IMG/VR virus record: IMGVR_UViG_3300048599_000907
Span: 1-32,681 of that record
DNA: 32,681 bases
DNA from: a virus
Taxonomy: Duplodnaviria > Caudoviricetes
Strand: one strand, 5' to 3'
Every line of letters starts with the position of its first letter. The stretch's first letter is position 1. Below the pieces are notes generated by a model. The model saw only the letters and a list, made by a program, of their open reading frames with translations, made no database searches and was not told the origin of the DNA. Below, one piece after another: positions 1-20,430 of this stretch. The position numbers and the translations under genes were made by a program.

Positions 1-152
1 TCACTCGGCCGCGCGGGCGAGTTCGCGATTCTCGTCGAGGATCCGCCCGAAGGCGCCTAATGGCAGGGATTGCGCGACCGGCTTCGCAGGGCGGCGCACG
101 GCTCGGAATCGACGCTCGATAATATTTAACGAAAAGAAGGGGGCCGCCACAT

Positions 153-330
153 TGTAATCTATAGCAATCAATGATAAATCCCCAAAATCCCCAAAAACCT
201 TTATAAAATAAGGATTCGTGGCCATTTTCAGGGTTTATTTCATGATAATCGATATCCCTGGAAAACAGCTTGTAAATGCCTATTTTATGGCCCTTTTTCT
301 GGTATCCTGTTACCATTCTTGTTACCTTGA
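153..330. repeat. Probable prophage end with short repeats (candidate transposase-binding sites)
   Basis: TGTAATC at 153; tandem AATCCCCAA x2 (177-194); TTTTCAGGG (225-233) vs CCCTGGAAAA (256-265) inverted; TGTTACC x2 (308-314, 320-326). Mu-type ends begin with TG. Confidence 0.4.
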
Positions 331-354
331 CGATTCTATGAAAAGAGGTATACT
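327..354 (+). promoter_or_regulatory. Sigma70-like promoter pointing at the 3' end of the MuF gene
   Basis: TTGACG (327-332), 16-nt spacer, TATACT (349-354). Confidence 0.5.
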
Positions 355-384
355 TAATAATGATCGCTGGATTATTCCTGCGAG

Positions 385-438
385 AAAGAAAGGCGCGAAG
401 CACCCACTGCTTTTGGGTGTTTGAGCGCCTTTTCTTTT
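385..438. terminator. Long, probably bidirectional intrinsic terminator downstream of MuF
   Basis: AAGGCGC-GAAGCACCCA / TGGGTGTTT-GA-GCGCCTT stem, with a T-rich tail on both strands. Confidence 0.65.
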
Positions 439-1928
439 TACCGGAGAAAATCACCTTTATTGATCGTTTTACGGTCGAATACCCATGTTTTGTCCTGCCA
501 TTTCAAGATTACCTTTTGGGCCATATTCTTGAACATGCCTCTGTAGATACCTTTCTCAATATCCTCTTTCGACATCTCCGGAAGCGCATGAATAATTATC
601 GTCCTGGCGTGTTGCGATCTTCCCGCTTCGGTTATCTCGTTCTTTATACTGGTCCATTCGGGTACTGTTTGCCTTTTCATTTCTCCTATCTCATTATTGA
701 TAAGCATATCGGGGCTTTTCATGTTGTTTTGAGGAAGTAGGTATATCTGATTACCGTCTTTCGCAAGGTCTGTTGCGTCGGCTATTTCCTGCTGAGAAAA
801 CATGCCATTTTTTGCTTTTTCGAGATACCCGCCATTCTTGAATTCCGAAATACGCGAATAGCCATTGAGCATTTCGGTCTGATAATTCGTCATGCCGAGA
901 TCGTGAGCCTGCTGCAGGATATCACCGATTATTCCGTACTTCTCGGCCCTTTGAATCATCCCGTCCGTGAGTTTCCACCAGCTCTCTTTTTCGATCGGAT
1001 TACCGCCAAATCCTTTCATCGGTTTAAATGTTTTTCGGAGGTCGGTCATGCTGGGATTTTCTACCTGAACGGTCCGACCTATCTCTGATTTTCTTACCGC
1101 GCGAATACTGTCACGGCAACCGTAATGATAGGGAGGAAATCCGTATATTTTCCAGAAAGGATGATTTGCCGGCATGGCAATTCCATATCCGGACGCAGAG
1201 AGAAGCGCTCGGCAAATTGCGGTAGTTCTATTGTCATCAATGATGAATAGCTGATATGCAGGCGGACTCGTTTTCTCGTACTGCATGAGCTTTCCGGAAA
1301 CATAGCAACTCTGAATATTCGTCCGATAAACAGTTTCCCAATAGCCCGGTTTCCACTCGTATGCTCCTTCTTCTTTCGCGATAGCCTTGATGTCAGCCCA
1401 TGATTTTGCGAAGCCTTCACCGTTTTCTACGGCCGAAAGAAGACGACCGCGAACTGCTTCTATATAGTCAACTTCGCTGAGTCTCGCAACTGTGAAGGCG
1501 CGAAATCGCAGTTTTGGTTCAAGAGCCGACCATTCCCTTTTCGTCAAAGGTACTTTTCCCTTGAGCATGGAAACGGCCTCTTCGAACGGTAAAAGCTCAT
1601 CGAGGGATGTAGAAATATTCGGGATCGATTCATCTGCGGCCATGATTGTCTTCGTCGCATGATCCATGCCAAGAAGTAATGCAGACGCGAAAAGCCGCTC
1701 TGCATTTACGACGAGATCTTCATTGATTTCTGGATACGGAAGCTGCGAAAGGACCTCTTTACTTGGCGGTGATCCATCAGGAGAAAGATCATTTATCCAG
1801 GTTGATACGGATTTTCCGAGCTGTTCTTCTACCCGTTTTTTTCCGGCGTCCGCCAGCGAATCAACTTCTCTTGACTTGGCCGTTTCGTCTTCTACAGGAT
1901 TCGAATTTCCGTTCGTTGCTTCAGGACT
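438..1928 (-). CDS. MuF (Mu gpF/SPP1 gp7-like) head protein with C-terminal PD-(D/E)xK CdiA-like nuclease; frame open from the A9 run, probably translated as a portal fusion
   Basis: MuF motifs RAFTVA, TVYRTNIQS, DDNRTT..C, HPFW...PPYHYGCR; C-terminal KSPDMLINNEIGEMK. The frame stays open 87 codons upstream of the ATG at 1667 with no ATG/GTG/TTG, and that ATG has no SD. Confidence 0.85.
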   Translation of the reverse strand, partial: SPEATNGNSNPVEDETAKSREVDSLADAGKKRVEEQLGKSVSTWINDLSPDGSPPSKEVLSQLPYPEINEDLVVNAERLFASALLLGMDHATKTIMAADESIPNISTSLDELLPFEEAVSMLKGKVPLTKREWSALEPKLRFRAFTVARLSEVDYIEAVRGRLLSAVENGEGFAKSWADIKAIAKEEGAYEWKPGYWETVYRTNIQSCYVSGKLMQYEKTSPPAYQLFIIDDNRTTAICRALLSASGYGIAMPANHPFWKIYGFPPYHYGCRDSIRAVRKSEIGRTVQVENPSMTDLRKTFKPMKGFGGNPIEKESWWKLTDGMIQRAEKYGIIGDILQQAHDLGMTNYQTEMLNGYSRISEFKNGGYLEKAKNGMFSQQEIADATDLAKDGNQIYLLPQNNMKSPDMLINNEIGEMKRQTVPEWTSIKNEITEAGRSQHARTIIIHALPEMSKEDIEKGIYRGMFKNMAQKVILKWQDKTWVFDRKTINKGDFLR

Positions 1929-3151
1929 TTTTTTTTACCGGAGTCAGACAGGTTTTTTTCTGTCTGATTTGGTGCTCCGGGTGAGCTTGTTTTCAAAAAA
2001 GAATCCGACGCGTCGCGGGGCTTTGGCAATCCGTAGACGGTATAGAGAGCATCTTTACTGACCTCGACGCCGCTTTCGATCGCCTTGATTACCTGGTCAA
2101 AGGATGCCCTCCGGTTCACATCGAACTCTATCTGCGGGGCTACCACGGATTCGCCGTAATTCAGCTCTACCATCCAGTTGATGATCTTCTGCATAACGGT
2201 CTGTATTTCAAGGGCGATTCCCTTTGCGTCTTCATAAAAGAGATCTGCCTGAACCTCTCCGAGCGCGAGGCTTCCGCCTTCGGTTTTTGACGTGGCGATC
2301 GACTGGCCGGTGAGTCCGTAGGATATCTGCGTGTCGCAGGCATCGACCAGGGAAGAGAAGTCGATAAGATCGCCGCTCATTCCGACTTCCTTGATGTCGC
2401 TCACGTTCCCGACGGCCGCCGCCGAACCGGACGAAATAGAAAGGAGTTGCGAAGCGATGAGGTTTGCGCGCTCCTGGGTAGCCGACGGATCACCGTCAAA
2501 CTGGAAAAGCGCAATAATGGTTTTTACCGAGAATTTCTCGGTCGCCTGGAGCCAAAAATCATACCCGGCCCGTTTGAACATGTAGGCCCAGTATACGCAC
2601 CGGAGAACACTTGTGCCGTACGGATTCTCGTCGTCCGGATCGTGATGATAGAAAAGCCATTTATAATTCTGATCGAGTTTTGACCGACCGCCGAGCGAGT
2701 TCCAGTAGCAATTCCATTCGTGATCGAAATAGAATCTGTCGGGTTTTCTGGTGATGATGTTGTCCGGCACCCACAAGCCGTTTTCGGTATTCCAGACAAC
2801 CTCGGATACCGAAAAACCGTAATCCAGAGCCGATAGCATTCTTTTCATCTTCGCATAGAGCTTCTGGGTCAGAAGTTTGTTTTTCGAGACGAACTCAAAC
2901 ACTTCGTCCGGGCACAATTCCGGCTGAGTAATTCTGACCGGAAAATTGAGCGCGGTTGTCTTCAGCTTGTTAAGGAGAGATTTTATTCTCGGGTCGGTTT
3001 TCATCATCCGATACGTCTCGTAAGACGTTAAAGTACCGGCCACGATGTCGTCGGGATTCGGCATATATTGCAGGAATGAGCCGAGTACGCTATCGGTAAT
3101 GACTTGCGTGGTGAGGGTCTGTTTCTGCTCGTTCGTAATGTTCTTTTTCAT
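1892..3151 (-). CDS. Portal protein (Mu gp29/DUF935-like)
   Basis: DPRIKSLL, ALDYGFSVSEVVW, NPYGTSVLR and GSLALGEV motifs; follows terminase; AGGAGG before ATG at 3151. Confidence 0.9.
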   Translation of the reverse strand: MKKNITNEQKQTLTTQVITDSVLGSFLQYMPNPDDIVAGTLTSYETYRMMKTDPRIKSLLNKLKTTALNFPVRITQPELCPDEVFEFVSKNKLLTQKLYAKMKRMLSALDYGFSVSEVVWNTENGLWVPDNIITRKPDRFYFDHEWNCYWNSLGGRSKLDQNYKWLFYHHDPDDENPYGTSVLRCVYWAYMFKRAGYDFWLQATEKFSVKTIIALFQFDGDPSATQERANLIASQLLSISSGSAAAVGNVSDIKEVGMSGDLIDFSSLVDACDTQISYGLTGQSIATSKTEGGSLALGEVQADLFYEDAKGIALEIQTVMQKIINWMVELNYGESVVAPQIEFDVNRRASFDQVIKAIESGVEVSKDALYTVYGLPKPRDASDSFLKTSSPGAPNQTEKNLSDSGKKKVLKQRTEIRIL

Positions 3152-3153
3152 GA

Positions 3154-4698
3154 TTACCACCTCCTGACGCGGTTAATAATGGATTGAGCGGTCGTTCTGA
3201 CGGTGTTTCCGACCGGTACGATGATCGGCGCGGAGCCGCCGGACGGGATCACCCTGACGGCTAATTCAAGCGCATCGCAACGATCGTCGAACGCGCCCTT
3301 CGGGAATTGGGTCAACTCATCGCGAAGGTCCCGAGAGCCTTCCTTCCGTATTCTGATGATTCCGTTTTCGATCAGCGGGGAAATTGAGCGAACGCGAGAC
3401 TCTTTCGACATCCCTCTTGTCTGCAGTTTCTTTATTGGCAAATAGATATTTTGCTCCGCGGCGAGTTTCATGATGTAGTTCCCGTAGATGCCTGAAAACG
3501 CCACTTCTTCCCAGCCGATCAGCTCGAAATGAAACCGTTTGTGCATCAGAATAAGCTGGTTGCACGTTTCTGTTTCCGAGCAAGCTTTCCCCCAACAGTC
3601 GAGATCCCAGATGGTTCCGGTTTTCTCAACGCCGATCGCTTCCATGGCCGTGCGATCGTGCTTTCCGGTCGCGGGGTCTACGCCGCAAAATGTTCTCATC
3701 CGATCAATAGTGGCGCGCTCGTTCATCACGTACCAGTTACGCTCTATCCATTCCGGCTTGATTATTCGTTCTTCATCGCTCAACGGCTCATTGCAGTATT
3801 CCGTGCTGAATACGTCGAACCCGAGCTGTTGCCGTTTTTCTTCGAGCGCTTCGGCGCTCCAGTATTCCGGCCAAAGCGGGGACCCGTCCGGGCGAATGCA
3901 TGAAAGGCGAACGGCTATCCAGCGCTTGAGCGTACCTTCCTCTACCTCGCGCATAAGCCGGGATATCGGATCGTCGTTATGGAAAATGGTGTTTACCCAG
4001 ATTACGAAAGCCGTTTTACCAAGGTTAAAAACAACTTTTTTCAGCCATCTATAGATCTTGTCGCGCTGCGACGGCGACTCGACGGCATCATCTTTGAGAA
4101 CATCATCAAGAATGATAAGGTCAGGTCGATACTGCTTGAATCGCGTTCCGCGCATCGATGCACCGGAGCCCTTTGCCTGGACACACGCGCCGTTACCCAG
4201 TTCGATACGATCGTCTCGCCATATCTGACCTTTCAAGTCACCATAATCGTCGAGAATCATTTCGTTCTCTTCGATTTCGCGCTTTATGTTGATGAGGTTT
4301 TCTTTTGCGGAATCCGCTGATGCTCCAATAAGAAGGATGTATTTTCGTTTTCCCGTCAAAGCGCACCAAAGCGTATAGGCAAATGACCATCGTACTGTTT
4401 TTCCATGCTCGCGCGGCTCGATGAACATCGCACCGGCGAGATGTTCGGTTTGCCGGAGTAGTTTCCGATATTGCTCTGCGACGAACGGTTCAAGCTTTTT
4501 CGCGGTATCGGCTGAAAGGGATTGCGTGTCGGCGACATCATAAAGTATTTGCTGGTACTCAGCGGGATCGGTAAAGAAATAATCCGGCAAATACGTCCGG
4601 CAGAAAAAACCGAAATCTTTCTTTGCCCGGTTCAGGCGCTTGCGTTTCTCTATCGATGAATCGGATTTTCCGACAAGCTCTTCAAGCAATTCAGCCAT
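3154..4698 (-). CDS. terL: Terminase large subunit
   Basis: Walker A PREHGKT, Walker B LIILDD, RG..RPD, nuclease motifs GVDPA and FP....DD..DA. Confidence 0.93.
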   Translation of the reverse strand: MAELLEELVGKSDSSIEKRKRLNRAKKDFGFFCRTYLPDYFFTDPAEYQQILYDVADTQSLSADTAKKLEPFVAEQYRKLLRQTEHLAGAMFIEPREHGKTVRWSFAYTLWCALTGKRKYILLIGASADSAKENLINIKREIEENEMILDDYGDLKGQIWRDDRIELGNGACVQAKGSGASMRGTRFKQYRPDLIILDDVLKDDAVESPSQRDKIYRWLKKVVFNLGKTAFVIWVNTIFHNDDPISRLMREVEEGTLKRWIAVRLSCIRPDGSPLWPEYWSAEALEEKRQQLGFDVFSTEYCNEPLSDEERIIKPEWIERNWYVMNERATIDRMRTFCGVDPATGKHDRTAMEAIGVEKTGTIWDLDCWGKACSETETCNQLILMHKRFHFELIGWEEVAFSGIYGNYIMKLAAEQNIYLPIKKLQTRGMSKESRVRSISPLIENGIIRIRKEGSRDLRDELTQFPKGAFDDRCDALELAVRVIPSGGSAPIIVPVGNTVRTTAQSIINRVRRW

Positions 4699-5234
4699 TA
4701 TTTCACCTCAGCCGAATCGACTATCGAGCACAGTCGATCCAGTAATTCAGGATCTGATTGAATCGATTTCTGAAGTTCTTCCTTGATTCGCCGCTTTGCT
4801 TTTTCGAGTGCGTCGATAGCCTTGGTACGATAATTTGAAAGTTTTAGTTGTGTCTCAGCGACCTTGCTTGCAGCCTGAATTAACTCTGAAGGATCATCAA
4901 AGTTGATGCTGTCGATTGTGCGAAGATTTGTTGTAAGGAAACTTGCAAGCTGCATCATCATTGCTTCGCTTGCCTCAGTCGCGGGATAATCCTTGAGTAT
5001 CTCCGCCATGGCCTTTGCGCCTTCGATTCCCCTTCTTGCCTCGACTATCTGCTCTTCATGAGTTTTGATCGCGCGCCGAATACCTTCGCGACTTATGGTT
5101 ATCTTGTATCCATTTTCCTGCAGCCACTGATTCACCTCGTCGGTGACATAGACAATGGTCTTCTTCCCGCCATCCCATTTTTCGGCAACGAGTTCCTGAA
5201 GACCGAATTCTTCTACTTTCCCTTTTCGTCCCAT
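4698..5234 (-). CDS. Terminase small subunit (Mu gp27/DUF3486-like)
   Basis: MGRKGKVE start, WLQENGYKITISREGIRR motif, directly upstream of terL; start moved to ATG at 5234. Confidence 0.75.
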   Translation of the reverse strand: MGRKGKVEEFGLQELVAEKWDGGKKTIVYVTDEVNQWLQENGYKITISREGIRRAIKTHEEQIVEARRGIEGAKAMAEILKDYPATEASEAMMMQLASFLTTNLRTIDSINFDDPSELIQAASKVAETQLKLSNYRTKAIDALEKAKRRIKEELQKSIQSDPELLDRLCSIVDSAEVK

Positions 5235-5235
5235 A

Positions 5236-5529
5236 TCATGCCTCGCGGGAAAGAGTAATCCCCGGATCTTCCGGGATATTACCATCGATGAGGTCGATGC
5301 CGGACGGGGCGATCTTGTATCCCACGATCATTTCGCCCGGTTTCAATAGGTGAGGCGTTTGCTTCGTGAGGATATAGCTCTTGTCGGCGAGATAGGCCAA
5401 TGATGCGCGGATATCGTCTGGCTTATAGTATTCGTGCTCGATCATGATGATCGCCATTTCTTCCATTCCGTCGGGATACAGCTCTTTTAAGAGAGAGAGG
5501 AGCTTGCCGCGTAAAATGTTATGTTTCAT
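5236..5529 (-). CDS. Mu gp26-like winged-helix protein
   Basis: 97 aa, R..LL..L / LAYLADK.Y / I.P.G.D pattern; syntenic position before the small terminase. Confidence 0.65.
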   Translation of the reverse strand: MKHNILRGKLLSLLKELYPDGMEEMAIIMIEHEYYKPDDIRASLAYLADKSYILTKQTPHLLKPGEMIVGYKIAPSGIDLIDGNIPEDPGITLSREA

Positions 5530-5942
5530 TCGCCTTTTCCTTTATCCCGCCATAGGTCTATGATTTTGTTCGAGATCCCCGTCATTTGTGTCATAATCAA
5601 ATCAGACAGACGGTTGATCTCGGTTCGCCATCCGGATGTAGTTCTCAAAAACTCTTCTTTCCGTACCGCGTCCTGCTCAAGAATCCGAATGCGTCTTTCA
5701 TGTTCATCGAATCGCTTGTTGGTTTCATCCTGGTATTTTTCAAGTTGATCGATTACCGATTTCTTGAGGCCCTCCATCTGGTCGGCGAATTCTGTTTTCA
5801 TCGCCGCATCGCGCGCGCAATTATCTTTTTCGTTCTTCTGAATCTGGCTGTTAAGCCAAATAATTAGGGGAATGAGAATCACCGTGGCGGCGGTCGGCGC
5901 CCAGGCCTTTAAGCCGGTAAGAAAAACAGTCAGGGCGTCCAT
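5526..5942 (-). CDS. Mu gp25-like membrane-anchored coiled-coil protein
   Basis: N-terminal hydrophobic helix then coiled coil; lies between lysis and packaging genes; ATGA overlap with the next gene. Confidence 0.6.
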   Translation of the reverse strand: MDALTVFLTGLKAWAPTAATVILIPLIIWLNSQIQKNEKDNCARDAAMKTEFADQMEGLKKSVIDQLEKYQDETNKRFDEHERRIRILEQDAVRKEEFLRTTSGWRTEINRLSDLIMTQMTGISNKIIDLWRDKGKGE

Positions 5943-5945
5943 CGG

Positions 5946-6332
5946 TCACCTCACGTACGCATTCGTTATAAAGCCAGCAAAAAAACCTCCCAGAATGGAA
6001 GCAGGTATCGCCCATCCCGGTATTTCTATGCGCGATTGTTCAGCTTTCAATTCTTTATTTATCTGGTCGGATTGAACCCTGTAGTATTCCTTTTTTGGTT
6101 CAGACCCGAGCAATCCGGCCTTGTATCCATCAGCGTACGCCTGATCGATAGATTTGTCGGCTTCATCAACAGCCATATCGATCAGGTGAGCGACTTCGTC
6201 ACTGGTGTATGTTCTGTCCGATTCGAGACCGTAATCGTTCGCGGAAGTCTCGTTTGATTTCGTCGGTTCGTTCGCGGTGAGCGTCAGCGTCAGGGCTATC
6301 GCGCACAAGAGTACGGCTATCAGTCTTTTCAA
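5946..6332 (-). CDS. Exported protein with C-terminal membrane anchor (spanin-like partner)
   Basis: GGAGG then TTG at 6332; signal peptide KRLIAVLLCAIALTLTLTA; C-terminal TM GWAIPASILGGFFAGFI; overlaps the upstream gene in another frame. Confidence 0.6.
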   Translation of the reverse strand: MKRLIAVLLCAIALTLTLTANEPTKSNETSANDYGLESDRTYTSDEVAHLIDMAVDEADKSIDQAYADGYKAGLLGSEPKKEYYRVQSDQINKELKAEQSRIEIPGWAIPASILGGFFAGFITNAYVR

Positions 6333-6489
6333 TTTTTTCCTCCATGTTTTTTTCAGCCTCGCGCGCTGCCGAATCATCGTCGGTGAAATCAGATTTTCGT
6401 CCTTTCCCGAAAAGTATTGCGATCGCTCCTGCGATAAAGGAGGCGATAATTGCCCCGATCAGGGCTAGCTTCTGTTTAGCCGTTGCCAT
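6199..6489 (-). CDS. Inner-membrane spanin-like protein
   Basis: N-terminal TM (LALIGAIIASFIAGAIAILF) followed by a charged helical domain; follows the holin. Confidence 0.6.
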   Translation of the reverse strand: MATAKQKLALIGAIIASFIAGAIAILFGKGRKSDFTDDDSAAREAEKNMEEKIEKTDSRTLVRDSPDADAHRERTDEIKRDFRERLRSRIGQNIHQ

Positions 6490-6760
6490 TTGCCGCTGCC
6501 TTTGCCGCTTCGGATGCGTCCGCCGGGGGCGCGGCATCGTCACCAGGCGAAACCGGCTTGCCGCGGATTCCGGCGAATGTTTCCATCCAGAGGGAAATAT
6601 CGACCGGAGAGAATACCAGCGCCATGAATAGCGCTACCTTGATGACATCGTCCATCGGGATATTGAAAGACGTGAAGACGTTCACGCAAAAACAAAGAAG
6701 GACGAAAAATACCGCGAGAAGTTTTGAAAGAAGCGACAAAGGCTTGCCTTTAAGAATCAT
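6476..6760 (-). CDS. Putative holin
   Basis: Two hydrophobic segments, 94 aa, AGGAGG RBS, ATGA-coupled to the upstream peptidase-like gene. Confidence 0.6.
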   Translation of the reverse strand: MILKGKPLSLLSKLLAVFFVLLCFCVNVFTSFNIPMDDVIKVALFMALVFSPVDISLWMETFAGIRGKPVSPGDDAAPPADASEAAKAAANGNG

Positions 6761-7290
6761 AGAGCTTTCCTCCTGAAATCGGACTGATAGCAGTAAACGA
6801 TTGTGTAAAGGGTCCCCTGTGACGTAATAGCAGGGTTGTGCGGGTCCCACACTAATCGATCGTTATTGTCCACGATTCTGAAATGTATTTTTTGCGGGCC
6901 GTTTTGAGCGATTTTCTGAATGAATGCATCGGCACGCTGAAGCGCGCTTCCCTTCACCCAATCGTACCAGGTGATGATTCCGTTCTTCTTCGTACCGACT
7001 TCGATAAATCTCCCCGGCGCCCCAAGTATCTCGAGTGTTTTATTTGCCAGAACAGCACTTGAGTTCAGGACGTTTTCGCCGTCGATAAGCAAGCGTTTTT
7101 TTCCGGATACAAAGATCGAGTAATCCTTTCCCCAAAGCCAGATAGCATTTATCTGGCTTGTCGTCAGGGCATGTCCAGTCGCTATCTCGGCGATTCCCTG
7201 GGCGCTTCGTGCGAAACATCCCGATGCCTGAATAATGGGAAGACAGTCGGGATTATTCTGGGGCAACAGATCCATCTGTTTTGTATTCAT
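6757..7290 (-). CDS. DUF261-like papain-fold (C39/NlpC-like) peptidase, candidate endolysin
   Basis: IQASGCF (Cys), IHF (His), VWDP motif; first gene of the lysis block. Confidence 0.55.
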   Translation of the reverse strand: MNTKQMDLLPQNNPDCLPIIQASGCFARSAQGIAEIATGHALTTSQINAIWLWGKDYSIFVSGKKRLLIDGENVLNSSAVLANKTLEILGAPGRFIEVGTKKNGIITWYDWVKGSALQRADAFIQKIAQNGPQKIHFRIVDNNDRLVWDPHNPAITSQGTLYTIVYCYQSDFRRKAL

Positions 7291-7338
7291 GGATTAATGG
7301 TAGCGGACATAGACGAGATTCACTCTAAATCAGATAAA
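7291..7338 (-). promoter_or_regulatory. Late promoter (left arm), leaderless
   Basis: TTTATC-N3-TTTAGAGT-N19-TACCAT-N6-ATG; same layout at 19402-19452. Confidence 0.7.
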
Positions 7339-7339
7339 C

Positions 7340-7369
7340 AAAAAAGCGCCCCGGATATTTCCGGGGCGC
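7340..7369 (-). terminator. Intrinsic terminator ending the early/middle operon
   Basis: GCGCCCCGGA-aata-TCCGGGGCGC followed by TTTTTTGTTT on the - strand. Confidence 0.85.
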
Positions 7370-7375
7370 CTGCAT

Positions 7376-7567
7376 TCAAGGATTTGTCTGACTGACTAAT
7401 TCTCTTTTCCACAACATGTATATGTAATTCGCAGCAGTAATAGATTTTAGCATGTCACGCACAAGAGCTAGACAAAACTCGTCAGGAAATCCGGACTTGT
7501 GATAGTTATCAAAAAGGGAAAACATACTAGTCCTAAACTCATCCCATGAAACTCGTTTTTCGTCCAT
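7376..7567 (-). CDS. Hypothetical protein (63 aa)
   Basis: AAAGGT upstream, same strand as the operon, ends before the terminator; AT-rich. Confidence 0.5.
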   Translation of the reverse strand: MDEKRVSWDEFRTSMFSLFDNYHKSGFPDEFCLALVRDMLKSITAANYIYMLWKRELVSQTNP

Positions 7568-7596
7568 TACATACCTTTTGTATGAAAATTATTTTT

Positions 7597-7824
7597 TTAA
7601 TATTCCTTCCCGCAAAAGGGACAAAATACCGGCGTAATACAAACGGTCGTTTTATTTTCCTGAAAAGAACCGTTTCGTTTCTTCTTCCTATACGTCATTG
7701 CGAGGCCGGAAGGTTTCACGGAAAGCTTGTTGCCTCCAAGGGAAAAACCGACATTGACCGATGCTTCCGGGTCTTCGTATTCCTCACGGATAGACTTATT
7801 TACCTTTTCGATACAGTCACACAT
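7597..7824 (-). CDS. Small Cys-rich (Zn-binding) phage protein
   Basis: MCDC...FCPFCG; AAGGAG RBS. Confidence 0.7.
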   Translation of the reverse strand: MCDCIEKVNKSIREEYEDPEASVNVGFSLGGNKLSVKPSGLAMTYRKKKRNGSFQENKTTVCITPVFCPFCGKEY

Positions 7825-7976
7825 ATTTCACTCCTTATTTGTTGATCTAAGTTAGGCGTCTTCCGAAGAAGCGCTGCCAAATGAACTGTGCAGTAAAGAC
7901 CATAAGTATTTGCATTGCCGCATTCATCGATCTCTTTCTGAGAAAGTTCTTTCTTACAATCAATACAATATGCCAT
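7800..7976 (-). CDS. Small Zn-finger-like protein (58 aa, MAYCIDCKKELSQ...YCTVH)
   Basis: Read by hand (below the ORF-track cutoff); GGGAGG RBS; CxxC...CxxH. Confidence 0.6.
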   Translation of the reverse strand: MAYCIDCKKELSQKEIDECGNANTYGLYCTVHLAALLRKTPNLDQQIRSEICVTVSKR

Positions 7977-7992
7977 TCGTTCCTCCCGCGTG

Positions 7993-8172
7993 TTATGCGC
8001 CGCCTTTCTTTTTGTTCAACTCGGCGTAAATCTGTTTTTCCATTCCGTCAAGTTCGTGCCGCGCCCGAGCGATCATCCCGAGTGCAAGATTCGGTGATGC
8101 TGTGCATCGCACGGATAACTTGTCATCATAATCGACGCTCGAAACCTTAATCATTAAAACCTGTTCATCCAT
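7993..8172 (-). CDS. Hypothetical cassette protein (59 aa, MDEQVLMIKVSS...KKKGGA)
   Basis: Read by hand; AAAGGA RBS; the stop TAA lies inside GCATAAC (attC R''-type box). Confidence 0.65.
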   Translation of the reverse strand: MDEQVLMIKVSSVDYDDKLSVRCTASPNLALGMIARARHELDGMEKQIYAELNKKKGGA

Positions 8173-8249
8173 ATTTATATCCTTTCCGATAAATCCGGCT
8201 TGGCGTGTGTCGGCATAGTGCGCTTGCGCGGTATGCCGCTAAAACGTCC

Positions 8250-8311
8250 GCATAACATTTGCTTAACCTGCGACGACGTTAGTCGGAGTCAGGTTGAAGC
8301 TGTTGTTGGAT
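8250..8311 (-). mobile_element. attC: Integron attC recombination site (62 bp)
   Basis: Minus strand: R'' ATCCAAC, 5-nt spacer, L'' CTTCAACC, TGAC-TCCGACTAACGTCGTC-GCA, L' GGTTAAG, 5-nt spacer, R' GTTATGC. The extra C in L'' and the extra A give the two canonical extrahelical bases. Confidence 0.85.
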
Positions 8312-8482
8312 AGCCGCCCGGTGCTTTTTGTAAAACTTCTTTGCGGCGGTGTCTTCTGGGCAATTATAGTCCTCGACAAATTCGCAATCATCGCATGAGA
8401 TTTGAGTTACTTGCATTTCACGGCTTGAATTGATCGACAATTCACCGCCGCATTTCGGGCAAACCATATCGTCTATATCCAC
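8279..8482 (-). CDS. Zn-ribbon protein carried on an integron-type cassette (67 aa)
   Basis: GGAGG then GTG at 8482; CPKC...CDDC; stop lies inside attC. Confidence 0.7.
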   Translation of the reverse strand: MDIDDMVCPKCGGELSINSSREMQVTQISCDDCEFVEDYNCPEDTAAKKFYKKHRAAIQQQLQPDSD

Positions 8483-8571
8483 GGTAAATCCTCCGGGCGG
8501 CGAGGTGCGCCGTCCATATAATCGCTTGCCGATTATGTGGCAAGCATCCAACTCTGCTTATCTCGTTCCGC

Positions 8572-8907
8572 CTATCGCACTTCCTCAAGCACCCCGCCGA
8601 TCTCCTTCGCCTTTTTCTCCGCCGTCATTTGCGAGAAGATTACCGCCCTTGATTTGCGGACTATCAATGGCATTCGCGAGATTTCCTCGACTCCTCCGTA
8701 GTATCCATCGTCGGACATCTTGATGAGGTATCGTTTTTCGCGCTCGAGCCGGATGAATCCCGCGAGTCCCAGAAGAGGGGCGATGATGATAGCGAGCGTG
8801 AAAAACACCAGAAAAAAAGGCGTAATAACCAGAAGTACGAGAGAGACAAGGAAACCGTATACTACGCTTTGAAGCCACGGGCCCCGGCCGATCGTTATCT
8901 TGCTCAT
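8572..8907 (-). CDS. Hypothetical membrane protein
   Basis: Long hydrophobic N-terminal half; GGGAG RBS; ATGA-coupled. Confidence 0.6.
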   Translation of the reverse strand: MSKITIGRGPWLQSVVYGFLVSLVLLVITPFFLVFFTLAIIIAPLLGLAGFIRLEREKRYLIKMSDDGYYGGVEEISRMPLIVRKSRAVIFSQMTAEKKAKEIGGVLEEVR

Positions 8908-9029
8908 TTGCTTTTACTCTCCCTTTCTTGTTTTTTCCGTTGCGCTTCTTTGTAGAAAACGGAACACGGATTCTTGCAATTCTTTTGCGCGCACTCTTTA
9001 CAGTTTTTCGGTATTGTCCAGGTTCTCAC
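8904..9029 (-). CDS. Small Cys-rich protein (41 aa, MRTWTIPKNCKEC...)
   Basis: Read by hand; AGGAG then GTG; ATGA overlap with the next gene. Confidence 0.55.
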   Translation of the reverse strand: MRTWTIPKNCKECAQKNCKNPCSVFYKEAQRKKQERESKSK

Positions 9030-9039
9030 AGGCTTGCTC

Positions 9040-9411
9040 CTAAAATGCGAACTCAAGCTGGCTTAAAGGTTTGAGTTCTTGCTGCAATACTTTCGGACGT
9101 CGGCGCGGGTAATGCACCATTCCTCGTCGTCGTCCTTGTAGGCGTCCAGTTCTTTTCGGTAGATCATTCGGTAAATCGTAAGCGGCTGCAGCGAGAAGAA
9201 ATTCGCAACTTCCTCCACGGATAGAATCGCGTCCAGGGATTCTATTTTTTCTGTCAGGGTGTTGCTTATCATATTCGATGACTCCCTCGGGCAATACTCG
9301 CCAGGCTCCTGAGACCTTTACCGCCTCGACGCTTCCCATTACGATCAGGTAGTACACCTGCCACGTTTCCATACTTAGGTATTCCGCCGAAATCCTCACC
9401 GTCCAGAACAT
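9040..9411 (-). CDS. Excisionase/MerR-type HTH protein with C-terminal extension
   Basis: WTV...AEYL.M...QVYYLI..G.VEAVKV.GAWRV pattern; AGGAGGGG RBS. Confidence 0.65.
   Translation of the reverse strand: MFWTVRISAEYLSMETWQVYYLIVMGSVEAVKVSGAWRVLPEGVIEYDKQHPDRKNRIPGRDSIRGGSCEFLLAAAAYDLPNDLPKRTGRLQGRRRGMVHYPRRRPKVLQQELKPLSQLEFAF
9063..9272 (-). CDS. Excisionase/MerR-type HTH (HTH_17) protein
   Basis: LSVEEVANFF......IYRMI..KEL.A......W.I pattern; GAGGGAG RBS; nested in 9040-9411. Confidence 0.8.
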   Translation of the reverse strand: MISNTLTEKIESLDAILSVEEVANFFSLQPLTIYRMIYRKELDAYKDDDEEWCITRADVRKYCSKNSNL

Positions 9412-9428
9412 AGGTCCCCTCCTGACTG

Positions 9429-9457
9429 TTGACAGCGCCTTCGCATCGCGTTAAGGT
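9429..9457 (+). promoter_or_regulatory. Antisense sigma70 promoter
   Basis: TTGACA (9429-9434), 17-nt spacer, TAAGGT (9452-9457). Confidence 0.65.
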
Positions 9458-9461
9458 GTTC

Positions 9462-9533
9462 ATGAGTTTTATGCGCGGTAGTACCGCAGTCAGGAAGGGC
9501 GCCATCTGTTCGAGAGATGGCGCTCTTTTTTTT
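9462..9533 (+). ncRNA. Candidate ~70-nt antisense sRNA
   Basis: Lies between the promoter above and a + strand terminator (stem 9497-9525, T8 9526-9533); no ORF. Confidence 0.55.
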
Positions 9534-9750
9534 ATGCTATATTCAAATCGAGCTGTCCATTTTCCGACTCGACGATCCGAATGTCATCAAGAAGTTTGAA
9601 CAGCACGATTCCGATAGAGTCGAGCGCGAGACGCTGCTTATCGCACCTTCGCTCAAGAATGAAGAGTTGTTGTTTTGTAAGTTCTATTTCAGAAAGGATC
9701 TTTTCCAAGGTTAACCCCTGTGATCCGGGTTGAGTCCGGCTTTCCAGCAA
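9532..9750 (-). CDS. Small coiled-coil protein
   Basis: Follows gemA; heptad-like pattern; true start uncertain. Confidence 0.5.
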   Translation of the reverse strand: MLESRTQPGSQGLTLEKILSEIELTKQQLFILERRCDKQRLALDSIGIVLFKLLDDIRIVESENGQLDLNIA

Positions 9751-10160
9751 ATATCCCGTAACGCGAGAATTACGCTTGAGGCGCTTGATCGTGGCAGAAA
9801 TGATATATCGTCTACCTTTCCTATCCGCTTGATTATCGCCTTGAGGCTAATCTCGTCTTTCACGCGGCTTGCCAGTTGCCAGAGGCCCCGGATGTAGTAT
9901 TCCTGACGCTTCGTGATATACCCCGGAGCGCCGCCAACCGTGGTCTTTCGCTTGTTACCTGAAGCGGCGCTTGCTCGCGGATCGTATCGGAAGCCGAGTC
10001 GCGAGAACGCGAGCATGACTTCCTTGAACTGTTCTACGTCGCGAATTTCTTTCGAGCTTTCGCACCCGACGCCGGAGAGAATCCCCCGGTATGCCGCCTC
10101 GTCGATGCCCGTTTTTTTCTTCGCCACATGGATTATTCTGATCCAATCTTCTTTTCCCAT
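9711..10160 (-). CDS. gemA: GemA (Mu gp16, DUF1018) regulatory protein
   Basis: IHVAKK..GID...YR..L....SSKE motif; T.RQ..YI..LW; AGGAG RBS. Confidence 0.85.
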   Translation of the reverse strand: MGKEDWIRIIHVAKKKTGIDEAAYRGILSGVGCESSKEIRDVEQFKEVMLAFSRLGFRYDPRASAASGNKRKTTVGGAPGYITKRQEYYIRGLWQLASRVKDEISLKAIIKRIGKVDDISFLPRSSASSVILALRDICWKAGLNPDHRG

Positions 10161-10220
10161 AGTGCCGCTCCTGGTAATGTCGTCCGGGGCAGGACGTCCA
10201 GATCTGCCCCGAAGTGGAGA

Positions 10221-10832
10221 TCAAAGCCTCGCGACATCAAGATTAATCAGATCATATTCTCCACGATTATTCCGATGATAAACGCGAATATATTCCTTGC
10301 TCTCGGAGACTTGAATTGAATCCCCGATTGCTTCCATTGCTTTTTTCCATCGTAAATCATCAATGGAAAGGCGACGTAATCCAAGAATACGATTTGTGTT
10401 GATCTTTCCTGCTTTACCGACATAGAAGGCATCATTGACTAATGCCTGAATCTCACTTCGTGAGTCTTTTGACCAATCGGTTATGCATGCGTCGATAAGC
10501 TCTTTTGCAACCTGAAGGCGTTCATCGAATGAGATTAATTCGTTAACCGCTACGAGAACCTTGAACTCTCCGTCATATGACAGAAATTGCATGTTGCCTT
10601 TTTCGCCGCCAAACTTTACACCGTATTGTTCGGCACTCAGTTCTACAAACGCTCGGATGTCTCCGAACATTTCTTCTTTGAGTTCTCGGAGCTTCTCTGA
10701 CATGGAAAGAGTCTTTCTGACGACATCTTTAACCAGATCATCGCGGGCTTTATCAACATCCTTGACCATCGATACGGGATCAAGTCCGCCCTTACTGTTT
10801 TTCATGTACCCGTCGGGAATTTCGTTGTTCAT
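10221..10832 (-). CDS. DUF3164 family protein
   Basis: GYM.N.KG.L.P, GGEKGN....SYDG, FDERLQ.AKELID, W..AM.AI motifs; typical of transposable phages. Confidence 0.85.
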   Translation of the reverse strand: MNNEIPDGYMKNSKGGLDPVSMVKDVDKARDDLVKDVVRKTLSMSEKLRELKEEMFGDIRAFVELSAEQYGVKFGGEKGNMQFLSYDGEFKVLVAVNELISFDERLQVAKELIDACITDWSKDSRSEIQALVNDAFYVGKAGKINTNRILGLRRLSIDDLRWKKAMEAIGDSIQVSESKEYIRVYHRNNRGEYDLINLDVARL

Positions 10833-10845
10833 ACTTTCTCCTTTT

Positions 10846-11055
10846 TTATGCAGCTTCCGGGCCGGTTCCGGACGGAGCGATGCTCGTTTCGTTTTTCAGG
10901 ACTTGCTTTGCTTCAAAGACCAGCGTTCCTATTTTCAGGCAGCAGTCCCGAGGGCTCTTGTTCAGGATCGCGGCGGATGCCGTGTCCTGTATCTCGTCCA
11001 GAAGCTTGTTCAGCATTTCGTAGCCTGAATCGTTAATCATCATCGTGTTAGGCAT
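10846..11055 (-). CDS. Hypothetical protein
   Basis: GGGGAGG upstream of ATG (MPNTMM...); in-operon. Confidence 0.55.
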   Translation of the reverse strand: MPNTMMINDSGYEMLNKLLDEIQDTASAAILNKSPRDCCLKIGTLVFEAKQVLKNETSIAPSGTGPEAA

Positions 11056-11080
11056 TAGACACCTCCCCAAGTGCCGTTAT

Positions 11081-11788
11081 TCAGTCATCGCCTTTCGTCC
11101 CGGCAATGATTCCCTTCTCCTCGTACTGCTCGATGCGTTCGTAGTATTTCTCGATCGCGATCTGCACGTTTTTCAGGAGTTCCTTCTGCTCGATATCGGG
11201 CAGGCCTTGCGGTGGCGTCGTATACAGTTGAACGACCGGAATATGACCGCCGCTCTTGCTGATAAGCCAGAGCCGGTTCGTTTCATGGAACGACTCGACA
11301 CGGTAGTTTTTCAACCGAGCCTTCGAGAGGCAGGGTTCTGCGAACAGGGCTTCAATGTCGTAGTCGAACTCCGTCTGTTCATCGCCCGCGAACTTGACGC
11401 GGCCCGGCTTTTCTTCGTCGCCCTTTTCTGCTTTCACGCCGGCAAGCCCGGCGAGCGCATACGCTTCGGTCTTCGCCTTGTCTTCGAGCAATGACGGGTC
11501 TTCCTTGAAGAACTCGAATGTCCTGATGTAGTTGTTCGCCGTGTTGTAGCTGAAATCGAAGTTTTCCTTGACGAACTGCATCCAGGGGAGGCTCGCGTCG
11601 GAATTCCGCCTGATCGTGTAGAGCCGTTGCCCGATGTCGAACGCGATCATCGCGGACTTCTTCATCGAGGCAATGAACTTCTTGTGAAGGGCGTTTACCT
11701 CCCGTACCGCCCCGGCGGAGATGTCCGCCGGGGCGGTCGCCGCGAGTCCGGTTTCCGGCTCGTTGGGCGCAATCTTGTTGTTTTTCAC
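11081..11788 (-). CDS. DUF3102-like protein
   Basis: IGQRL..I......W..FV.ENF.FS..TANNY motif; GGAGG RBS with GTG start. Confidence 0.7.
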   Translation of the reverse strand: MKNNKIAPNEPETGLAATAPADISAGAVREVNALHKKFIASMKKSAMIAFDIGQRLYTIRRNSDASLPWMQFVKENFDFSYNTANNYIRTFEFFKEDPSLLEDKAKTEAYALAGLAGVKAEKGDEEKPGRVKFAGDEQTEFDYDIEALFAEPCLSKARLKNYRVESFHETNRLWLISKSGGHIPVVQLYTTPPQGLPDIEQKELLKNVQIAIEKYYERIEQYEEKGIIAGTKGDD

Positions 11789-11792
11789 GGCC

Positions 11793-12704
11793 TTACCTCC
11801 AGTTCCTGCGGATTACCATCTGGGCGGCCATCTCGACGACCTCAAGGTCGCATTCCGCGATCTTGTTGACCGCCATGGTGTTTTGTGCCCGCTCGATGAT
11901 CTTGGTGAACTGCCTCACGTCCGTCCGGCTTATCGCGTAGATGGCGTCGATCACCTCCTTGTCGACCGCGGGCCATACCTTCTGGGCGATCATCGTCGCG
12001 TCCCGTTTCGTGAGGCCGCAAAGAGGGAGGTATACGCCGATGCGCGATTCGAGTTGCCGGTGGTCGTTCTTGAGGTTCTGAATGAGCCCGGTCAGTCGCG
12101 GAAGGCCGATAAGGACCAGCCCGGAGCCGCCGAGGTCATATACCAGGCGCCGGGAGAACTCGAGGGCGTCAGCCTTGAGATTATCCGCCTCGTCGAGGAT
12201 TACTACCATGTCGCGTTCCGCGAGCGCGGCGGCTACGTTCTGGATCAGCGTTTGATTCGGTACGCGGTAGATGTCGACGCCGAGGTATTTCGCGATCTCC
12301 TGAACGAGCGCTTTCTTGTTCATTCCCGAAACGACATTGACGAGTATCGTCGTGCGCGGATTGCGGTCGGCGTACCACTTCGCGGCGGTAGACTTCCCCG
12401 CGCCGGCATCATCGACGATGAGCGCGATGTCCTTTTCCGAATGGGCAAGCGCGATCGCGTTGGTGATCTTGGTCAGCGCGTCCGTCTCGACGATCTCGAC
12501 TTTCTTGCGGGCGTGTGCCTGTTCGAGCCGGGCGATCCACTTGATGATCGCCTCCTCGAGTTTGTCGACATCGCCCTTGTACTTCCCGCCCCGGTAATCC
12601 GATATAACCGGGCTTGAGTACCCGATATCCTTTGCCGCGCGATTCTGGCTGATCTCGTACTTTTCGAGCGTCGCCTCAAGTCTCGTTACCACTGTCTGAT
12701 TCAT
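11793..12704 (-). CDS. MuB-like transposition ATPase (N-terminal HTH + AAA+)
   Basis: SQNRAAKDIGYSSPVIS HTH; Walker A DAGAGKS; Walker B VVILDEAD; LVLIG and L.SRIG motifs; follows the transposase. Confidence 0.92.
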   Translation of the reverse strand: MNQTVVTRLEATLEKYEISQNRAAKDIGYSSPVISDYRGGKYKGDVDKLEEAIIKWIARLEQAHARKKVEIVETDALTKITNAIALAHSEKDIALIVDDAGAGKSTAAKWYADRNPRTTILVNVVSGMNKKALVQEIAKYLGVDIYRVPNQTLIQNVAAALAERDMVVILDEADNLKADALEFSRRLVYDLGGSGLVLIGLPRLTGLIQNLKNDHRQLESRIGVYLPLCGLTKRDATMIAQKVWPAVDKEVIDAIYAISRTDVRQFTKIIERAQNTMAVNKIAECDLEVVEMAAQMVIRRNWR

Positions 12705-12713
12705 AAATCCCCC

Positions 12714-14648: not shown

Positions 14649-14920
14649 GCCGCTTGTCCTCTCTCCCTCATGGTTTCGAGGTCGCCGCGCGTCCTGATCG
14701 GGAAGAGGTCTTCCCGGCGAAGGCCGAAGAATGCGGCGATGCGGGTTTCGGTAGCGGGGGATCGGCGCGTACCCCAGATGATTTCCGACAGGTGACTTTT
14801 CTGAATCCCTACAGCATCTGCAAGTTCATCTTGCGTCATCTCATTTGCATAGAGCCGCTGCATGACAAGCATCTTTCGTTCGATGTCTTTCGGGTAAGGT
14901 CTTCCGGGTGCCTTTTTCAT
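14645..14920 (-). CDS. Ner/Cro-like XRE HTH regulator
   Basis: MTQDELADAVGIQKSHLSEII.G HTH; ATGA-coupled to the transposase; AGGAGG RBS. Confidence 0.8.
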   Translation of the reverse strand: MKKAPGRPYPKDIERKMLVMQRLYANEMTQDELADAVGIQKSHLSEIIWGTRRSPATETRIAAFFGLRREDLFPIRTRGDLETMRERGQAA

Positions 14921-15189
14921 TATGTCCTCCTCTGTTCAAGTTCCTTTATGCGGTCCTTCAATAAACCGATTGTTGAATACGCGATGTCGCGGGAGTCGAC
15001 CAGCAGATCGATCGCCTTCCGCTGATATTCGATGATCTTGTCCTGGGCAAGTTCTCTTCGCTTTTGCATGGCGAAATCGCCGCATAACCGGCTGATCGCC
15101 CGATCCTGCATACGCAGCCTTGCCCGTAGCCGTCGGCACTTCTGGCATTGCCGTTGTGCCCTCTTGTTTTTTCTTCCGTTTCTGTTCAT
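14920..15189 (-). CDS. Basic coiled-coil hypothetical protein
   Basis: AAAGGA RBS; TAATG coupling to the Ner-like gene. Confidence 0.6.
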   Translation of the reverse strand: MNRNGRKNKRAQRQCQKCRRLRARLRMQDRAISRLCGDFAMQKRRELAQDKIIEYQRKAIDLLVDSRDIAYSTIGLLKDRIKELEQRRT

Positions 15190-15249
15190 ACTGTTGTTCG
15201 TCCTTTGATCGGCGCAGCAGCTTGCAGGCCGTCGCGCGCCAATCGAGAT

Positions 15250-15277
15250 AGCGGTTCCCTACGGAGCCGCTTTTTTT
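15250..15277 (+). terminator. Intrinsic terminator on the + (antisense) strand
   Basis: AGCGGTTCC-ctac-GGAGCCGCT followed by a T run. Confidence 0.7.
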
Positions 15278-15289
15278 ATGCCCGAAGCC

Positions 15290-15342
15290 CCTTCGTGGTA
15301 TACTGGAATCACCACAACCCCAGAACGCCACGAAGGAGGCAA
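15290..15342 (+). repeat. Repeat A copy 1: extended -10 promoter plus RBS within an inverted repeat
   Basis: CCTTCGTGG-TATACTG...CCAGAACGCCACGAAGGAGGCAA; second copy at 15818-15869. Confidence 0.85.
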
Positions 15343-15350
15343 AAAAACAA

Positions 15351-15557
15351 ATGAAGATTTATGAAGGTGAGAAGCTGTCACCAAAGGATCGACTGGCTCA
15401 AACAGTCGAGTTGACGGAATGTCCCGCATGCGGGCAGTCAATCAAATGGCCGCCGAACCAGAACCTGATTATTCACTGCCCGTACTGTCAGGAGTATTTT
15501 TTTGGGAAAAAGGTTTTAACAGATTTGGAACTCGATTCAGTAATGGATGAAGAATAG
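15351..15557 (+). CDS. Zn-ribbon protein (68 aa)
   Basis: CPAC-x15-CPYC; AAGGAGG RBS from repeat A1. Confidence 0.7.
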   Translation: MKIYEGEKLSPKDRLAQTVELTECPACGQSIKWPPNQNLIIHCPYCQEYFFGKKVLTDLELDSVMDEE

Positions 15558-15774
15558 TTCTAACTGCCCACGGGAAGGTTGAACAGTATTTCGTATACCG
15601 GAGATAGCCACCTTCAACCTTCCACCAGTATTTTCTGTTAAGTACACTTGGACATCCTTGTTCGATAAATAGCCTATGAAATTCTTTGAATGTTTCAGGA
15701 TCGTCCAGACATTCTCGACGTCGACGCATTGCGAAAGCGTAATCTTTCGTGACGGTGAATCCGAATAGTTTCAT
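15469..15774 (-). CDS. Hypothetical protein (101 aa, MKLFGFTVTKDY...)
   Basis: Preceded by repeat B1 (hairpin + AAAGGG); 3' end overlaps the + strand Zn-ribbon gene. Confidence 0.5.
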   Translation of the reverse strand: MKLFGFTVTKDYAFAMRRRRECLDDPETFKEFHRLFIEQGCPSVLNRKYWWKVEGGYLRYTKYCSTFPWAVRTILHPLLNRVPNLLKPFSQKNTPDSTGSE

Positions 15775-15781
15775 TGCCTTA

Positions 15782-15801: not shown

Positions 15802-15817
15802 CGATAAAGAAAGCCTT

Positions 15818-19449: not shown

Positions 19450-20430
19450 ATGAAAACACGAACGAGGGAAATTGCGAAAGTCGGAATCTTCGGATCTATC
19501 GACAACCCCACCATCGTCACGGAAAAAGACCTCAAGGAGATCGCCGAAACCTTCCTGGAAATCAAGAAGGCTCCGGTGCAGTTCGGCCATTGGGGCGACG
19601 CGGCGAATCCGCGTCTCGCGAACGTCGTGGCGGTCAAGTATGATCCCGTCGCAAAATCGCTCACCGCCGACATCGATGAGGACGACACGCTCAGCGCTGC
19701 CGTCGACCAGGGATATTATCCCGACGTGTCGATTGGAGCGAAGCAGCGCGCGTCCGACGGCAAGATGTATCTCCATCACCTCGCGTATCTCGGCCAGGAA
19801 GCGCCCGCGGTCAAAGACCTTATCGACTCCATCAAGGAGCCGCTCGGGATCGCCGCGTCTGACGTTGCCGACGTCAAATGCCTTCCGACCCCGACCTCGC
19901 GCGCCCTCGTTCTTTCCGAGCCCTTTAATGACAAAAGCATAAAGGGAAATGAAGGAACGCCGCCTGCGGCGAGCTCAGGAATGAGCTCCCTTCCCCCCGC
20001 AGGCGGCAAAACTTCATCTCCAAATCCCAAGGAGGAACCCAAAGTGACGGAACAAGAAGCTGCCGATCTCGAGGCAGAAAACAAGAAGCTCAAGTCCGAC
20101 ATCGAGAAAAAGGACGTGCTTCTTTCCGATTCGGAAAAGCGCCAGAAAGACACCGAGCGGGAAAAGCTTCGTACTTCAATGGACGGCCGCGTTCCGAAGG
20201 CATTGCAGGATCGCGTAATCGCGCTTGCTGATTCCTTCGACAACGCCAAGACGATCGAGCTTTCCGACGGCGACGCGAAACGTACCGTTCGGCCGGCGGA
20301 AGCCCTCGCCGAAATATTCGCCGCGCTCCCCAAGCTCGTCGAGCCCGGCGAGCTCAACCTGAGCGACGGTGACCCCGCCGCGTCCCCCGCAAAGCCCGGC
20401 GCCGCGCGCGCCATGATGGGCCACGTATAA
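19450..20430 (+). CDS. Prohead protease/scaffold (Mu gpI-like)
   Basis: APV..GH, G.Y..VS, YLHHLAYLG..APAVK motifs; coiled-coil C-terminal half. Confidence 0.8.
   Translation: MKTRTREIAKVGIFGSIDNPTIVTEKDLKEIAETFLEIKKAPVQFGHWGDAANPRLANVVAVKYDPVAKSLTADIDEDDTLSAAVDQGYYPDVSIGAKQRASDGKMYLHHLAYLGQEAPAVKDLIDSIKEPLGIAASDVADVKCLPTPTSRALVLSEPFNDKSIKGNEGTPPAASSGMSSLPPAGGKTSSPNPKEEPKVTEQEAADLEAENKKLKSDIEKKDVLLSDSEKRQKDTEREKLRTSMDGRVPKALQDRVIALADSFDNAKTIELSDGDAKRTVRPAEALAEIFAALPKLVEPGELNLSDGDPAASPAKPGAARAMMGHV
20044..20430 (+). CDS. Scaffold protein from an internal in-frame start (Mu gpZ-like)
   Basis: AAGGAGG then in-frame GTG at 20044, at the start of the coiled-coil domain. Confidence 0.65.
   Translation: MTEQEAADLEAENKKLKSDIEKKDVLLSDSEKRQKDTEREKLRTSMDGRVPKALQDRVIALADSFDNAKTIELSDGDAKRTVRPAEALAEIFAALPKLVEPGELNLSDGDPAASPAKPGAARAMMGHV

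Follow-up and report, generated by a model that had tools for sequence, protein, structure and literature searches.

A conserved A9 run at the portal-MuF junction of a Mu-like phage as a predicted recoding site

Introduction

The virus record IMGVR_UViG_3300048599_000907, analysed here at its full length of 32,681 nucleotides and termed the window, is by its gene content a Mu-like transposable phage, the portal gene of which ends 11 codons after a run of nine A, while a second long frame, carrying a MuF domain and a nuclease-like tip, lies open at -1 behind the run without a start of its own. The comparisons made below indicate that this run is a real and conserved recoding site, and the production of a recoded portal-MuF fusion, be it by the polymerase or by the ribosome, appears highly probable. 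As to the route, we favour, with a probability of about 0.6, slippage of the host RNA polymerase on the run, by which one A would be added to a minor share of the transcripts; these A10 transcripts would direct the synthesis of a 904-residue portal-linker-MuF-nuclease protein alongside the plain portal of 419 residues.

The portal gene and the frame behind it

The portal gene (1892..3151, minus strand) encodes a Mu gp29-type portal in a short form, assigned to phrog_113 and matching the profile PF06074 above cut-off (E 1e-62, 212.8 bits), with distant sequence matches to solved portals; comparison of tail lengths shows it to be devoid of the C-terminal extension of about 100 residues seen in two-gene Mu-type portals. 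Its ATG at 3151, preceded by the Shine-Dalgarno sequence (SD) AGGAGG (3160..3165, minus strand; -11.6 kcal/mol), is likely the only start for both products. The original prediction, made from the sequence alone, proposed recoding at a T9 seen at 1928-1936 on the plus strand; this run is indeed there, and is the sole A or T run of at least nine in the window. Three other runs of eight occur, T8 at 9526-9533 and at 17988-17995 and A8 at 19212-19219.

With its preceding T the slip site spans 1928..1937 on the minus strand, and the local reading is as predicted: the portal ends GGT AAA AAA AAA GTC and is terminated after 11 codons, this zero-frame tail with its stop (1892..1927, minus strand) ending the plain portal, while the -1 frame opens at the run, the preceding TAA borrowing the T of GGT, and remains open for 498 codons (438..1934, minus strand), in which open reading frame (ORF) and domain searches place a helical linker, the MuF domain and the nuclease-like tip. 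This TAA was considered as a meaningful boundary and rejected, as the frame opens earlier in phase-2 relatives. The 87 codons after the run contain no ATG, GTG or TTG before the ATG at 1667, only CTG, ATA and ATC, and that ATG is without an SD (+1.2 kcal/mol against -11.6 at the portal start), again in agreement with the prediction. Likewise the predicted fusion of some 904 residues is found to be of exactly this length, one added A and a -1 shift giving an identical protein. The tryptic peptide proposed for mass spectrometry would reveal translation of the -1 frame, but it is not a junction peptide, being situated wholly after the lysines.

Conservation of the run and of the frame

Among related loci, 116 reached the portal end, 86 of them with distinct tails, and 77 of these, the window included, share at least 40% portal identity. 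At the portal end 70 of the 77 have A9 and six have A10, the last one (L018) being an in-frame fusion with A10; 67 loci have the MuF frame at -1 and two have it at +1, while eight could not be scored. Since a run of A9 or A10 stands here in all 77 loci, whereas only 14 other A runs of at least nine are found in their 452 kb, the run at the portal end is more than chance. A wider profile survey yielded 143 distinct portal loci, of which 86 are split with the run and MuF at -1, two are split with the run and MuF at +1, four are fused with the run, 13 are fused without it, 11 are split without it and 27 have no visible MuF. The check proposed in the original prediction, for a conserved run and frame relation in relatives, finds both strongly conserved, with MuF at -1 in 86 of the 92 loci having both a homopolymer run and a visible MuF (two at +1, four in-frame). 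In five loci of a sister clade (L226, L241, L246, L253 and L254) T8-T10 replaces the A run at the same site and in the same frame.

On a portal tree of 84 sequences, selected by redundancy reduction from 133 of sufficient length (FastTree, midpoint root, monophyly untested), the run-bearing loci are found in three groups that lie apart from one another, with fused and two-gene loci between them, and their portals stop about 25, 75 or 135-160 residues past the core. Because of these separate groups and different stop positions, the sequences suggest that the layout arose repeatedly. Four loci (L018, L216, L218 and L237) are in-frame portal-MuF fusions that keep A10 and have stops nearby in both other frames; these are possibly cases of inverted logic, in which a slip makes the short portal, or else assembly variants. 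In others (L229, L239, L243-L252 and similar; 16 of the 143 loci lack both MuF and run) the portal ends right after the core with neither MuF nor a helical extension behind, and for this reason a plain short portal appears to be sufficient in some lineages.

Selection on the frame upstream of the called start

The stretch preceding the ATG at 1667 aligns as one helical domain, free of stops over 90 codons in 70 of 70 relatives. This linker (1638..1927, minus strand) is conserved, lies mostly upstream of the ATG and is modelled with a predicted local distance difference test score (pLDDT) of 86. In 15 close pairs the ratio of nonsynonymous to synonymous change (pN/pS) of the stretch is 0.22 in the -1 frame, with no stops, and 1.5 and 2.1 in the other two frames, with 110 and 162 stops. 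On this evidence from sequence the start-less stretch is a helical domain under purifying selection and the ATG at 1667 is internal to it; the methionine in question, that of LLGMDHA, is kept in 46 and replaced in 24 of 70 loci. Similarly, the first start codons of the -1 frame are scattered from -10 to +347 nt in 67 loci, and only two of these 67 have an SD of -6 kcal/mol or better, compared with 47 of 56 portal starts; in 11 of the 67 a start codon does lie no more than 60 nt from the portal stop, none of these having a good SD. Taken with the frame relation in 86 of 92 loci and the natural in-frame fusions, the selection upstream of the ATG and the lack of a start signal back the fusion originally proposed.

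Homology of the linker to the extension that two-gene Mu-type portals bear at their C-terminus was considered and set aside as weak (hhalign probability 16%, E 0.0016), and a fold search of the linker among viral models gave no match (0 of 384 at E <=0.001). A practical consequence is that many MuF genes would be annotated with false starts, some 90 residues short.

Isolated phages with the same layout

In four of 14 annotated records, hand-picked from 117 and 382 matches, namely EBPR siphovirus 4, RcapMu, RcWaterboi and RR1-B (L257 and L282-L284), an A8-A9 run precedes the portal stop by 1-4 codons and the gene that follows is at -1; each of these runs is the sole A or T run of at least seven in about 5 kb of DNA of 59-66% GC. 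Two further records have G_GGA_AAG at the portal stop, and the remaining eight are ordinary. In a Bacillus/Geobacillus group of siphophages, Rossellomorea phages included, of which 10 of 40 matches were read (L277, L278 and L287-L294), nine of the ten carry G_GGA_AAG or A_AAA_AAG at the portal stop or one codon before it with the head-morphogenesis gene at -1, DZ1 being left unscored because its portal is split in the record. Judged by sequence, the portal stop in this group is a candidate for an unannotated ribosomal frameshift site. In Curly and GBK1 the annotated starts are preceded by SDs of moderate strength (-6.4 and -6.6), which speaks against a shift there, but these starts stand at differing places in a conserved frame. 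Since RcapMu and RcWaterboi (Rhodobacter capsulatus), 276BB001 (Bacillus subtilis) and GBK1 (Geobacillus) are isolated phages sharing the layout, it is directly testable in phages of laboratory hosts, with one group for each kind of site.

Polymerase or ribosome

The original prediction named both a ribosomal shift and a transcriptional slip without choosing between them; the comparative evidence leans to the latter. The argument for the polymerase derives from what is kept at the junction and what is free to vary. At the frame transition there is a run of about nine or more A or T, the length of which is preserved regardless of codon phase and base: A9 stands at codon position 1 in 44 loci and at position 3 in 26, and A10 occupies other phases. 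A T directly precedes all 70 A9 runs, and C or G precedes eight of ten A10 runs, although the rule of the preceding T fails in proteobacterial phages (C-A8/A9). The Lys codons inside the runs of 28 clusters are AAA in 73 of 73 cases, against 59% elsewhere, the clusters being related. Motifs of the form X_XXA_AAG, the best -1 motifs in E. coli (PMC4066793), occur in none of the 86 loci with the run and MuF at -1, whereas runs of nine A or T slip efficiently in vivo (PMC5009743). No stimulator of ribosomal shifting is conserved: in 79 family loci a structure 3' of the run has a z score below -2 in only two (+1.5 in the window; 60 nt covered, pseudoknots lying outside the model), and no internal SD near the run is conserved, its strength being weaker than background. 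Polymerase slippage is thus favoured because the length is kept while the phase varies, and because X_XXA_AAG and a conserved stimulator are both lacking. The presence of tRNA-Lys(CTT) has been linked to slippage in Thermus dnaX (PMC5009743), and a pattern search finds this tRNA in four of five host genomes checked, the fifth, a possibly incomplete genome carrying prophage L221, showing only tRNA-Lys(TTT). L221 itself has A_AAA_AAG with six A, followed by one codon and the stop, with MuF at -1.

The window has in addition a strong hairpin (1938..1980, minus strand; -20.8 kcal/mol, z -6.8), ending one base before the run. The arms of the predicted 8-bp hairpin, at 1944-1951 and 1960-1967, are real, but the fold is longer than was described and is not conserved, such that a 5' hairpin was rejected as a stimulator for the family (mean z -0.03, four of 79 loci below -2). 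Abutting the run, it could nevertheless act as a local stimulator of slippage in the window, by analogy with the IS630 of Roseiflexus (PMC5009743).

Several points weigh against slippage by the polymerase, and some of them favour the ribosome making the same fusion, either through two tRNA-Lys slipping in tandem by -1 on A_AAA_AAA or through sliding on iterated AAA, a route we regard as unlikely, albeit by no means negligible. A_AAA_AAA in the window conforms to the X_XXY_YYZ heptamer, and A_AAA_AAA or T_TTT_TTT lies in the shift phase in 86 of 86 loci. One dominant direction of shift is held to indicate ribosomal shifting (PMC3711429), and here -1 dominates; only two loci at +1 and four in-frame represent the other states, which may be errors, as P0121 and P0122 are single contigs and one of the +1 loci (L061) shares its cluster with a 90%-identical locus of ordinary tail, so that a recent loss of one base, or an error, is possible there. 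Related phages have true ribosomal heptamers at the same junction and, since L221 and the nine Bacillus-group phages carry them there, it could be bridged by ribosomes. Moreover, runs of A are less slippery than runs of T for the polymerase of E. coli (PMC6260861), the loci share ancestry and their counts overstate independence, and both Pfam matches in the -1 frame (PF04233 and PF18451) are below cut-off. Against the ribosomal route, seven A would be sufficient for it, yet nine or ten are kept across phases; no heptamer ending in AAG, conserved downstream structure or SD accompanies the run, and ribosome sliding at A9/A10 is weak and gives little product (PMC4363877).

Phase variation at the level of DNA, in which replication slippage would generate a minority of A10 genomes making the fusion, is quite improbable: length variants do exist (the four in-frame fusions keeping A10 and the two loci at +1), and P0122 and P0123 carry lysine runs at the junction, but a single state accounts for 86 of 92 loci, purifying selection acts steadily on the linker, and a genome of a single form could not mix both proteins within one infection. 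We consider it more improbable still that MuF is translated separately, from the ATG at 1667, from a non-canonical codon (CTG, ATA and ATC are available in the window stretch) or by re-initiation after the portal stop. The two-gene layout is common in Mu-type phages, as in the eight ordinary records, and in two loci (L139 and L039) the portal stop is overlapped by an ATG; nonetheless the first starts are scattered and without SD, the conserved domain begins upstream of them, and the invariant run would be left unexplained. Finally, homopolymers are prone to error, and the true gene might be a plain A10 fusion; the chance of this is minimal, given that 86 loci of numerous assemblies, as well as records of isolated phages, show the same split, and that there are three contigs from two runs (of one study, possibly the source of the window) that cross A9 without an indel.

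The appended domains and a back-facing element

In the -1 frame the MuF domain, similar to Mu gp30 and SPP1 gp7, occupies 1113..1454 (minus strand), with phrog_220 at E 6.5e-26 and PF04233 at E 3e-6 (28.4 bits, just under the cut-off of 29.6). It is followed by the tip (504..719, minus strand), matching PF18451 at E 4e-5. The structural model of the -1 frame matches one solved structure at E <=0.001, the CdiA-CT 4g6v_A (Foldseek E 5e-4, probability 1.0, target TM 0.62), and the tip contains the catalytic motif PD..E.K; a sequence search of the tip among solved structures gave no match. We describe it as a predicted CdiA-CT-like PD-(D/E)xK nuclease, presumably a tRNase, the 'nuclease' of the original prediction being founded on the one fold match and on a Pfam match below cut-off. 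The type of tip is polymorphic among relatives, being CdiA_C-like in 48 of 57 loci and another domain or none in nine.

A MuF domain beside the portal and a variable C-terminal toxin domain are features of MuF polymorphic toxins, but an adjacent immunity gene is not seen, as no ORF with a start signal follows the tip in the window. Its place is occupied by a structured non-coding stretch (327..440, plus strand), comprising a back-facing sigma70-like promoter (327-354), hairpins of about 80 nt and a terminator, for which Rfam gave no match in window positions 1-5000. The back-facing promoter motif is found behind 35 of 46 CdiA_C-like tips and none of nine others (1/46 in the sense direction, 1.4 in shuffles), a comparison that is partly circular since these loci were themselves the source of the motif; with a stricter consensus and a crude domain classifier the promoter is found in 9/39 against 5/16, without contrast. 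The element is possibly a small RNA antitoxin, which we put forward as a lead.

The phage, its host and the operons

Besides terminases, Mu gp29-type portal, protease, capsid and tail genes the window, a whole virus record, encodes a MuA-like transposase, MuB and a repressor; it is the MuA transposase, MuB and the gp27-29 head genes (phrog_310, phrog_296, PF11985 and PF06074) that mark it as Mu-like. The closest named portal relatives reside in Treponema and Spirochaetia assemblies, and the host is for this reason probably a spirochaete. The leftward transposition operon (1-17427) ends in terminase, portal and MuF, the large and small terminase subunit genes (3154..5285, minus strand) lying upstream of the portal in the same operon, and is separate from the rightward protease-capsid-tail operon (17490-32681). 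The same division has been described for KS10 (PMC2628397).

How the junction may work

Slippage by the polymerase would be favoured by the correspondence of nine to ten A with the 9-10-bp RNA-DNA hybrid. Both products would then co-assemble in one 12-subunit ring, such that the frequency of slippage sets a low number of cargoes and a separate step of MuF-portal binding is dispensable. The JBD30 portal is a dodecamer, the crown and wing of which stay within the capsid (PMC11445458), and because of this location a cargo at the portal C-terminus would hang inside the head and face the DNA. In the model of the -1 frame, segments of low confidence flank the linker on both sides. A tethered toxin would need release, which makes the head maturation protease (19450..20430, plus strand; phrog_976, E 1e-16) a candidate for cutting. 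In Mu, the portal loses part of its C-terminus by trimming as the head matures. The cargo, likely cut off at this stage, would enter the next cell with the DNA, where the tip may act as a tRNase on the infected or a competing bacterium. That a portal-MuF fusion is viable is indicated by the 13 run-less fusions among the 143 loci and by published fixed fusions (PMC7302621).

Recoding of this kind would fix the ratio of the cargo genetically, turning the portal into a mixed ring, and offers a mechanism by which MuF/gp7-like proteins and their toxins would come to be present in the capsid in only one or two copies. In its widest form, which we hold tentatively and at less than even odds, the proposal is that tailed phages have at the portal-MuF junction a second site of widespread recoding, next to that of the tail chaperones. 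It would have several origins at different positions, employing polymerase slippage on A/T runs in some hosts and ribosomal X_XXA_AAG in others, tracking the tRNA-Lys set of the host, and would produce mixed rings, a few of the 12 subunits bearing an exchangeable toxin that is released by the maturation protease and, in this family, restrained by a small RNA transcribed in the opposite direction.

Comparison with known systems

A literature search within main texts, with few subscription journals among them, returned no description of portal-MuF recoding, although the cluster tables of frameshift surveys or the RcapMu paper could hold one. The word 'frameshift' is absent from the main text of PMC5576092 on MuF polymorphic toxins, 'portal' and 'DUF935' from section 10 and further passages of PMC3711429, and 'portal' from the first 300,000 of the 449,034 characters of PMC5009743. 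The nearest remark is in the RefSeq record of RcapMu (NC_016165, RcapMu36/37), the sequence of which has C-A8 with MuF at -1: it states that the portal is short relative to related mu-like phages, that a 'possible +1 frameshift' could give readthrough, and that MuF is without a good ribosome-binding site. Unlike the analysis of the window, this concerns a single record and involves neither conservation nor mechanism. The same record (L282 locus 1841) mentions another 'potential -1 frameshift' in a small gene just upstream of the portal.

A close likeness in mechanism is dnaX, which employs transcriptional slippage on a run of nine in Thermus thermophilus and a -1 ribosomal shift in E. coli: as proposed for the window, one gene with a run of nine gives two products of one oligomeric machine, and orthologues differ as to which of the two machines slips, perhaps in keeping with their tRNA-Lys set (PMC5009743). 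The window gene differs in being structural to the virion, and in that the longer of its products is the one made by slippage, with a polymorphic cargo appended. The G/G-T frameshift of the tail assembly chaperones (Xu, Hendrix, Duda 2004, as cited in PMC2628397 and PMC7302621) is likewise conserved and yields a minority protein extended at its C-terminus; the site in the window lies instead in the head module and is a homopolymer of conserved length rather than a heptamer. The G_GGA_AAG of the Bacillus-group portals is the G/G-T motif of lambda itself.

With respect to the domains, the MuF polymorphic toxins and SPP1 gp7, the latter portal-bound at 1-2 copies per capsid, have MuF beside the portal and a variable C-terminal toxin as in the window, but are described as separate genes with immunity genes, whereas here no immunity ORF follows the tip (PMC5576092). 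The fixed portal-MuF fusions of Microbacterium clusters EA3/EA5/EA8 and EB have the same order of domains in one chain but, unlike the window, involve no recoding, so that every subunit carries MuF (PMC7302621). The class of mechanism and the fusion of domains are thus both known, and it is their combination that has barely been noted.

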